DNA of 24,041 bases, taken from IMG/VR virus record IMGVR_UViG_2703718827_000006; one strand, given 5' to 3'. The DNA comes from a virus. Lineage: Duplodnaviria; Heunggongvirae; Uroviricota; Caudoviricetes. A model generated the notes under the pieces. That model did no database searches. It saw only the letters and a program-made list of their open reading frames with translations, and was not told the origin of the DNA. The position numbers were made by a program, and so were the translations under genes. Positions within the stretch are counted from its first letter, which is position 1, and every line of letters begins with the position of its first letter. Shown here one piece after another: positions 15,695 through 16,185 of this stretch.

Positions 15695-15928
15695 TTAATG
15701 CAGCCAGCTGTCGTCTTCCCACACCTTCTGCATAATTTTCATCACTTGTTTTCTTTCTTCGTCCAGTTGCAGTCCGGTCAGTTCCACACCGTTAGAGCTA
15801 CCTTTGCGGATACGAATTACCGTTTTGGGATACAGGGGGCGCAGATTGCGGTAAAGCTCGGATTCAAGGGCGTCCAGTGTAGACTGGCTAATCTTCTGCT
15901 CTTTATCGATCATTATTTCAATGCGCAT
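15695..15928 (-). CDS. DinI-like protein (resembles the C-terminal domain of the 186 Tum antirepressor)
   Basis: From ATG at 15928 (GAGGTG RBS): MRIEIMIDKEQKISQSTLDALESELYRNLRPLYPKTVIRIRKG..., which aligns by eye with E. coli DinI (MRIEVTIAKT...DAL..EL.RR...FP). The ORF frame also stays open upstream to 16000. Confidence 0.7.
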   Translation of the reverse strand: MRIEIMIDKEQKISQSTLDALESELYRNLRPLYPKTVIRIRKGSSNGVELTGLQLDEERKQVMKIMQKVWEDDSWLH

Positions 15929-15938
15929 AAAAGTCACC

Positions 15939-16127
15939 TCAGCTGATGACATCCATTGAGCGGTTGTATTCGTGGGTTCTGATTTTTGCCATGAGTTCAT
16001 CTGTCAGTTCAGAAACCCACTGCAGGGCCAGCCCCTTCTCTTCATCACTACACTCACTAGCCGCTACAAGCTTAAGAAAAAAATCAATGCGCTGGAGCTT
16101 CAAAGACTCCAAAAAATAGTCCTGCAT
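15939..16127 (-). CDS. Small protein (62 aa), possibly the N-terminal part of a Tum-like antirepressor
   Basis: ATG at 16127 with a strong AGGAGG RBS 4 nt upstream; about 45 bp downstream of a LexA box; its 3' end overlaps the extended DinI-like frame. Confidence 0.5.
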   Translation of the reverse strand: MQDYFLESLKLQRIDFFLKLVAASECSDEEKGLALQWVSELTDELMAKIRTHEYNRSMDVIS

Positions 16128-16169
16128 CTTTCCTCCTATAACACCAAAGCAATACTGTATACATAACCA

Positions 16170-16185
16170 CTGTTTATATTTACAG
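16170..16185. promoter_or_regulatory. LexA operator (SOS box), CTGT-N8-ACAG, with an adjacent half-site
   Basis: Seen in sequence: CTGTttatatttACAG at about 16170-16185, a perfect match to the CTGT-N8-ACAG core, and a CTGT half-site at about 16155-16158. Sits upstream of the small ORF/DinI-like pair, consistent with the LexA-controlled tum promoter of 186. Confidence 0.6.

Follow-up and report, generated by a model that had tools for sequence, protein, structure and literature searches.

Adjacent tum-like and dinI-like genes as a probable LexA-repressed SOS-induction operon in a Fels-2/DuoHS-type P2-family prophage

A known relative of the locus considered here is the tum gene of phage 186, whose product is reported, in a citation of Shearwin 1998, to bind the CI repressor reversibly and to prevent it from binding its operators. 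The 186 Tum protein looks like an antirepressor fused to DinI, and in Fels-2 and PSP3 (also written PsP3) tum is split in two, with the antirepressor as the upstream half (Lemire 2011, PMC3121763). Bunny et al. 2002 is the primary source for the Fels-2 split, as cited in Lemire 2011. The split tum/dinI module of Fels-2-type phages is therefore already known and ordinary, having been in the literature at least since 2011 with reference to a 2002 study. The Fels-2 record annotates a 62-aa hypothetical protein, STM2728, together with a DinI-family gene, STM2726.1, whose entry notes a similarity to PsP3 TumB. The PSP3 pair is named tumA and tumB and lies after gene A, behind a LexA box. The tumB gene is DinI-like, and tumA, of 60 aa, carries an annotation that likens it to the 5′ end of 186 tum and gives it a role in UV induction of the prophage. 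A dedicated literature search on tumA, tumB and PSP3 returned nothing relevant.

The function of the upstream gene has been defined genetically in DuoHS, a prophage of E. coli HS. An in-frame deletion of tum in DuoHS, like a lexA(Ind-) allele, abolishes mitomycin C-induced lysis and virion formation (Phollow paper, PMC12055606). The primer used to build this deletion, NHR28 (ATAGGAGGAAAGATG/TGAGGTGACTTTTATGCGCATTG), joins the start codon to the stop codon of the 62-aa ORF and leaves the Shine-Dalgarno sequence and ATG of dinI intact (PMC12055606). The second half of NHR28 matches the DNA analysed here exactly, and the upstream primer matches with two mismatches. Because the deletion removes exactly the 62-aa ORF and abolishes induction of DuoHS, this gene alone is the genetically defined Tum of the Fels-2/DuoHS phage type.

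The DNA analysed here (the window) is a stretch of 24,041 nucleotides from a tailed virus, IMG/VR record IMGVR_UViG_2703718827_000006. It contains a closely similar locus, which very probably represents the SOS-induction operon of a Fels-2/DuoHS-type (Felsduovirus-like) P2-family prophage, consisting of two separate and intact genes, a LexA-repressed Tum antirepressor gene and a dinI-like gene (Table 1). The original prediction of a LexA-controlled, Tum-type antirepressor locus is thus upheld, the first ORF (ORF1) corresponding to the N-terminal half of Tum and the second to the DinI-like half. The surroundings agree with this assignment. ORF1 lies downstream of gpA in a P2/186-like prophage with a 186-type CI, and genes for CII, Fil and P2-type late functions are also present. 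Downstream of the dinI-like gene is a cargo region (12289..15696) that is shared with neither HS nor Fels-2, and searches of the neighbouring cargo genes with PADLOC and Pfam found nothing.

Table 1. Features of the tum-dinI locus and related prophage genes, in coordinates of the window.
Feature	Coordinates	Strand	Basis or remark
P2 gpA-type replication endonuclease gene, 804 aa	16280..18694	minus	immediately upstream of the locus; position as in 186, PsP3 and Fels-2
Putative -35 hexamer TTTACA of the SOS promoter (186 p95 equivalent)	16210..16205	minus	by analogy with annotated 186 p95
LexA box TACTGTAAATATAAACAGTG	16187..16168	minus	LexA consensus matched at 17/20 positions
Putative -10 TACTGT	16187..16182	minus	first six bases of the LexA box, as in 186 p95
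Shine-Dalgarno AGGAGG of the tum-like gene	16137..16132	minus	sequence
tum (tumA-type) gene, ORF1, 62 aa	16127..15939	minus	ORF list; homology to 186 Tum N-terminal domain, Fels-2 STM2728 and E. coli HS ECHS_RS04495
A5 run in tum codons Ala47-Lys48-Ile49	15987..15983	minus	ordinary coding homopolymer
TGA stop of the tum-like gene	15941..15939	minus	sequence; overlapped by the next Shine-Dalgarno sequence
Shine-Dalgarno GAGGTG of the dinI-like gene	15940..15935	minus	sequence; overlaps the tum stop TGA
dinI-like gene (tumB-type), 77 aa	15928..15695	minus	Pfam DinI; phrog_189; alignments with 186 Tum and 1GHH
Strong hairpin just past the dinI-like stop	15692..15650	minus	RNA fold; comparison with loci L020 and L030
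Second hairpin, then UUUAUUU, candidate intrinsic terminator of the tum-dinI transcript	15631..15606	minus	RNA fold; inferred
186-type CI immunity repressor, presumed antirepressor target	22018..22593	plus	Pfam Phage_CI_repr and Phage_CI_C

The LexA box that had been read ahead of the 62-aa ORF is indeed found there, on the minus strand, with an intact CTGT-N8-ACAG core at 16185..16170. The predicted box overlaps the promoter directly upstream of ORF1, and it covers the -10 element as it does in 186 p95. The putative -35 and -10 hexamers are separated by 17 nt; their exact placement follows the layout of 186 p95 and is to be taken as provisional. A consensus promoter scan did not call an SOS promoter on the minus strand, because the -10 matches the consensus at only 3 of 6 positions. 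The entire 24-kb window contains a single CTGT-N8-ACAG core, where 0.35 would be expected by chance and at least one occurs in 28% of shuffled sequences. This count is weak evidence, so weight rests on the position of the core and on its conservation: 24 of 33 related GTDB loci and 105 of 112 IMG/VR copies have it ahead of ORF1. The strong ribosome-binding site attributed to the 62-aa ORF is likewise present (Table 1).

The relationship of ORF1 to Tum becomes visible through profiles and intermediate sequences. Plain pairwise BLASTP of ORF1 against 186 Tum gives no alignment, so profile methods were needed. No family in Pfam or NCBIfam covers ORF1, and a sequence search of the PDB found nothing. 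ORF1 belongs to phrog_698 (3.6e-38), a family that the N-terminus of 186 Tum also matches at 5.7e-6. Both ORF1 and the N-terminal part of 186 Tum match phrog_8554 and phrog_1993, the latter being the family of PsP3 TumA, to which the link from ORF1 is weak (E 0.0022). When an ORF1-family profile is compared with a profile of N-terminal Tum sequences (186, ENT90 and YenM), hhalign returns a probability of 97.1% and an E value of 7.7e-11 over ORF1 residues 1–49. In addition, tblastn searches started with ORF1 and with the N-terminal 69 residues of 186 Tum converge on the same small ORFs in Yersinia phages. Because these intermediates and profiles link the two, ORF1 is identified as the N-terminal module of Tum. 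The likeness to Tum that was originally proposed therefore holds for the N-terminal half, by hhalign and PHROG, and fails in pairwise BLASTP. An AlphaFold2 model of ORF1, built from a diverse alignment, predicts with confidence a two-helix hairpin (helices 2–23 and 28–61, pLDDT 87.9). A Foldseek search of the PDB with this model recovered generic helical hairpins only, all with E > 1, and is uninformative on mechanism.

The second gene was correctly predicted to be a DinI-like ORF in another frame; it lies in the +1 frame relative to ORF1. It matches the Pfam DinI family (PF06183) over profile positions 1–63 of 63 with 81.3 bits (cut-off 24.2, E 6.6e-23). Against NF007893, the NCBIfam equivalog of chromosomal DinI, it scores 42.7 bits, below the cut-off of 111. 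The encoded protein is a DinI-like paralogue from phage, of the TumB type, and distinct from the host DinI. From its family membership it would be expected to bind RecA filaments and modulate the SOS response.

The ATG of the dinI-like gene (15928) lies 10 nt past the ORF1 stop, behind its own GAGGTG. Two alignments bear on this start. Residue 1 of the protein aligns to residue 1 of E. coli DinI (PDB 1GHH), and the alignment with 186 Tum (41% identity to residues 71–145) begins at V71, where the annotation places an internal GTG start, behind AAGGAGG, for a truncated Tum. A 101-aa ORF can be called from an ATG at 16000 by extending the open DinI frame upstream of ATG 15928. Its 24 extra residues show no similarity to Tum and add nothing to the Tum alignment. 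The original prediction stated that the two frames overlap. The open frames do overlap, across GCAAAAATC, but the actual dinI-like ATG lies past the ORF1 stop. Since the DinI-like start aligns with DinI residue 1 and with 186 V71, and the extension adds nothing, the overlap with ORF1 is a product of longest-ORF calling; the two genes are adjacent and do not overlap, and the overlap of frames is only formal. The junction TGAGGTGACTTTTATG is identical in 98 of the 112 IMG/VR copies, and purine-rich Shine-Dalgarno sequences occupy the equivalent position in other species.

The two-gene layout is found in a wide range of genomes. Of 33 loci drawn from different GTDB species, 30 have an ORF1 of 62 aa, as do all 112 complete IMG/VR copies; 111 of these copies also carry a 77-aa DinI-like gene. 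A search of 5426 complete E. coli genomes found the locus in 1125, about one fifth (1083 with at least 80% query coverage). Thirty sampled rows of these 1125 genomes all list separate genes and none a fused gene, and 28 of them list both genes. No fused Tum-DinI protein was found among 484 close homologues, of which the best 120 were looked at individually; none of these 120 has a DinI domain. An exhaustive phmmer scan also found none among 66 cluster representatives, where the few long matches were upstream-extended calls, chimeras or low-complexity noise. The comparison with homologous loci that had been suggested as a check therefore favours separate genes throughout, and the layout is both conserved and selected.

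These data bear directly on the A5 run within tum, across which the original prediction saw a single Tum apparently split into two frames. Four explanations had been offered, namely a programmed frameshift, a frameshifted pseudogene, a sequencing error and a natural two-gene arrangement, and only the last survives. The arithmetic behind the idea is sound: removal of one A from the run does yield a fusion of 143 aa, and 186 Tum does have 146 aa and a DinI-like C-terminal half. The split itself does not stand, given the separate start signals of the dinI-like gene, the lack of conservation of the A-run, a frame relation that varies, and the absence of A4, A6 or fused forms. The window does not encode a single fused polypeptide of the 186 type, since the TGA at 15941..15939 is followed by a separate Shine-Dalgarno sequence and ATG.

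A programmed event at GCA AAA ATC, either +1 ribosomal frameshifting or transcriptional slippage, would let a fraction of ribosomes produce a Tum-DinI fusion in addition to both separate proteins. In its favour, a +1 slip within A5 would leave tRNA-Lys able to pair again on AAA, no stop interrupts the +1 frame between the run and the dinI ATG in the window and in two related loci (L011 and L031), and 186 demonstrates that a functional fused form is possible. However, the A site holds neither a slow codon nor a stop codon, and a run of five A's falls far short of the known slippage tracts. Relatives carry neither a conserved slippery sequence nor a fixed frame relation with an open alternative frame. 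The codons GCA AAA ATC are replaced in relatives by GCG AAA ATC, GCG AAG ATT or GCG CGT CTG. The spacer between the tum stop and the dinI ATG is 9, 10, 11 or 12 nt, which puts dinI in frame 0, +1 or +2 with respect to tum. Of 18 related loci whose DinI-like gene is intact, 15 have a DinI-frame stop codon between the position of the A-run and the ATG, and in 12 of 29 distinct ORF1 sequences a stop interrupts the +1 frame of the tail. The pattern of substitution points the same way. The 29 distinct ORF1 DNA sequences differ preferentially at third codon positions when read in the ORF1 frame, and this holds for the 14 codons past the A-run as well. For this tail the ratio of synonymous to non-synonymous counts is 1577/1960 when read as ORF1, 366/3074 when read in the DinI frame and 233/3096 in the remaining frame. 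The tail is constrained in the ORF1 frame, with no second-frame constraint. With the run unconserved, the frame variable and stops present in the dinI frame, programmed frameshifting is rejected as highly unlikely, and the open +1 frame is a peculiarity of the lineage comprising the window, L011 and L031. Given this open frame, tRNA-Lys might on rare occasions slip by +1 on A5 in that lineage and so yield a little 186-like Tum-DinI fusion beside the two separate proteins. The chance of this is very slight; if it did occur, it would provide a third product with distinct regulatory properties.

A frameshifted tum pseudogene, in which an ancestral fused, 186-like tum gained or lost one A and so left two fragments and an uninducible prophage, is extremely improbable. 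Its attraction is that a single A deletion restores one 143-aa frame and that a fused 146-aa Tum exists in 186. Against it, a fusion would insert 24 residues between the two domains, and these show no similarity to the linker of 186. The ORF1 stop lies at a constant position across the species-level loci and IMG/VR copies described above, coding constraint continues past the A-run in the ORF1 frame, and the conserved Shine-Dalgarno sequence and ATG belong to the dinI-like gene. In addition, the near-identical DuoHS prophage is inducible, and its induction needs the 62-aa ORF. In the samples described above, homologous prophages consistently carry two genes and no fused form was found, and the pseudogene reading is rejected on these comparative data.

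A sequencing or assembly error in A5, concealing a true A4 that encodes a fused protein, has next to no probability and is rejected: homopolymers are error-prone on some platforms, but the exact A5 context recurs in at least 120 independent IMG/VR contigs, with A4 or A6 versions in none of the IMG/VR contigs, a 100% identical 511-bp copy lies in a complete E. coli genome, A5 is also present in Fels-2 and E. coli HS, and the sampled E. coli rows all list separate genes.

The natural two-gene arrangement also fits into a broader modularity of this locus. In ESSI2_ev015, ESSI-2, YenM_06.16-2, YenM_324 and ENT90 a Tum-N-like ORF stands by itself, and the portal or another gene follows without an intervening dinI-like gene; a Tum-N-like ORF without a dinI-like gene is also found in several GTDB loci. 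The tail of the ENT90 ORF resembles the 186 linker, yet ends in a stop. In four further loci (L015, L025, L029 and L042) the 62-aa ORF1 is intact and the neighbouring dinI-like gene is disrupted by nonsense or frameshift mutations. Because the Tum-N ORF occurs alone and the dinI-like gene decays beside an intact ORF1, the antirepressor is the conserved core of the module and the DinI-like gene an accessory cassette. The comparison provides an example of modular evolution of an induction module: Tum-N is found by itself, next to a distinct dinI-like gene or joined to one in a single ORF, and tum is kept where dinI decays.

The downstream end of the operon can be compared with two loci, L020 and L030, in which the ORF1 stop is followed directly by a hairpin and a GGTTGAAC...GAGGCGTTAG element, the same one that follows the dinI stop in the window. 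No canonical terminator emerged on the minus strand from a consensus scan. From the RNA folds, transcription may end at the hairpins at 15692..15650 and 15631..15613 together with the U-rich tail.

A model of induction can be proposed. In an undamaged lysogen, LexA bound to the box that overlaps the -10, downstream of gene A, would keep the operon off. DNA damage would lead to RecA-mediated self-cleavage of LexA and hence to transcription of the tum-dinI operon. The 62-aa two-helix protein would then bind the 186-type CI of the prophage (22018..22593) and block its operator binding, leading to lytic growth; CI binding by this small protein is extrapolated from 186 Tum. The dinI-like gene is translated from its own Shine-Dalgarno sequence and ATG. 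Its 77-aa product is accessory and is presumed to tune RecA filament activity and the SOS response during induction.

The 62-aa gene was shown genetically in 2025 to be the induction switch of a near-identical E. coli prophage. It is still labelled a hypothetical protein in RefSeq and in most phage records, and neither Pfam nor NCBIfam has a model for it, yet about one fifth of complete E. coli genomes carry the locus. A name for the gene would flag P2-like prophages that are SOS-inducible.

Among known systems, the operons of the Gifsy and Fels-1 prophages (GfoA, GftA and FsoA) are likewise LexA-repressed and likewise pair a small antirepressor with a DinI homologue. They differ in having dinI first, in reversed order, and in that their antirepressors and target repressors are of unrelated families; these phages are lambdoid. 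Non-polar dinI deletions in Gifsy prophages were without clear effect (Lemire 2011, PMC3121763).

The 186 locus is closer. It is controlled by p95, whose TACTGT -10 is overlapped by a LexA box, and it occupies the same genomic position. The N-terminal domain of 186 Tum is homologous to ORF1, and its C-terminal domain is the part with 41% identity to the DinI-like protein. A linker of about 25 residues joins the two modules into a single 146-aa ORF in 186, whereas in the window they are separate genes. An annotated internal Shine-Dalgarno sequence and GTG start in 186 nevertheless yield the DinI-like part alone. In 186 tum is followed by orf97, which is absent from the window. PSP3 shares the two-gene layout, although its TumA falls in phrog_1993 and ORF1 in phrog_698, families joined by a weak link. 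The PSP3 genes are in the same frame and 3 nt apart, whereas those of the window are 10 nt apart and differ by a +1 frame.

The closest known relatives are Fels-2 and DuoHS. For Fels-2, a shared stretch of 604 bp has 97.9% DNA identity, and STM2728 matches ORF1 at 98.4%. The window is 96–97% identical to DuoHS outside the cargo region, with a CI that is 96% identical; for the tum-dinI locus itself the DNA identity to DuoHS is about 97%. The DuoHS tum gene, ECHS_RS04495, differs from ORF1 by T50S alone (98.4% identity), and the product of its dinI-like gene, ECHS_RS04500 (WP_001217575), is identical to the DinI-like protein of the window. In both phages the LexA box, the Shine-Dalgarno sequences, the 10-nt junction and the position after gene A are as in the window; a few point differences and different cargo distinguish them.

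The tum-type gene, the LexA-controlled antirepressor gene homologous to the Tum-N region of phage 186, is poorly served by existing records. In Cronobacter phage ESSI-2 (NC_047854, ~671..925; L004) and Yersinia phage vB_YenM_324 (NC_070917, ~668..901; L006), a Tum-N-like ORF is found downstream of gene A and is unannotated in the RefSeq record. Elsewhere, most records and the RefSeq E. coli genomes give it the label "hypothetical protein," and in one case "levan regulatory domain protein." A gene of this type, whose function has been demonstrated but whose annotation is missing or uninformative, represents an annotation gap.

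Decay and absence of the genes of this locus are seen in several related tum loci. Four of these, from Enterobacterales species (L015, L025, L029 and L042, ~1690-1950 in each), harbor beside an intact 62-aa tum a dinI-like pseudogene that has decayed through nonsense mutations, frameshift mutations or truncation. In two others (L020 and L030, ~1685-1760), the dinI-like gene is precisely missing, and the tum stop adjoins the hairpin element that is found 3′ of dinI in the window. The tum homologue itself is disrupted in the Siccibacter turicensis locus (L041, 1501..1563), where the reading frame is closed by a stop after 20 codons and similarity continues beyond it out of frame. The original prediction had listed a frameshifted tum pseudogene in the window as one of several options; the S. 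turicensis gene is a true case of this type, though in a different genome.

At the junction of the two genes in the window, a small hairpin (GTCATC-AGCTGA-GGTGAC) pairs the final tum codons with the Shine-Dalgarno sequence of the dinI-like gene (see table). This structure could make translation of the dinI-like gene dependent on ribosome termination at the tum stop, that is, translationally coupled to tum.

The LexA box is closely followed on its downstream side by a second LexA-box-like match, CAGTGGTTATGTATACAGTA, which is half-site-only, with a good 3′ half (ATACAGTA) and a poor 5′ half. The sequence of this match is not the same in E. coli HS as in the window, and it is probably not a second operator.

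Features of the window at and around the tum-dinI locus
Feature	Coordinates	Strand	Database match
Segment without counterpart (variable slot)	12289..15696		
Three-gene operon (221, 148 and 371 aa)	12370..14597	minus	phrog_9664, phrog_11490, phrog_12777 (function of all three unknown)
141-aa ORF, convergent to the operon	15110..15535		phrog_7437
Junction hairpin	15933..15950	minus	
LexA-box-like half-site	16153..16172	minus	
87-aa ORF, part of the HS-unaligned segment	20378..20641	minus	none in Pfam search
Short HS-unaligned segment	20417..20995		

No alignment with the E. coli HS prophage was obtained for a short stretch flanked by the DUF5347 and Fil-family genes. The sole large segment without a counterpart in that prophage (DuoHS) or in deposited phage genomes sits between the portal gene and tum-dinI and constitutes a variable slot. 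Its cargo comprises four genes, none of which was matched in Pfam, NCBIfam or PADLOC searches. Judged by eye, the hydrophobic N-terminus of the 141-aa product looks like a signal peptide. The position between the portal gene and tum-dinI is a known hotspot for cargo and defence genes in P2-like phages, which makes the four slot genes candidate members of an accessory or defence system not yet characterised.
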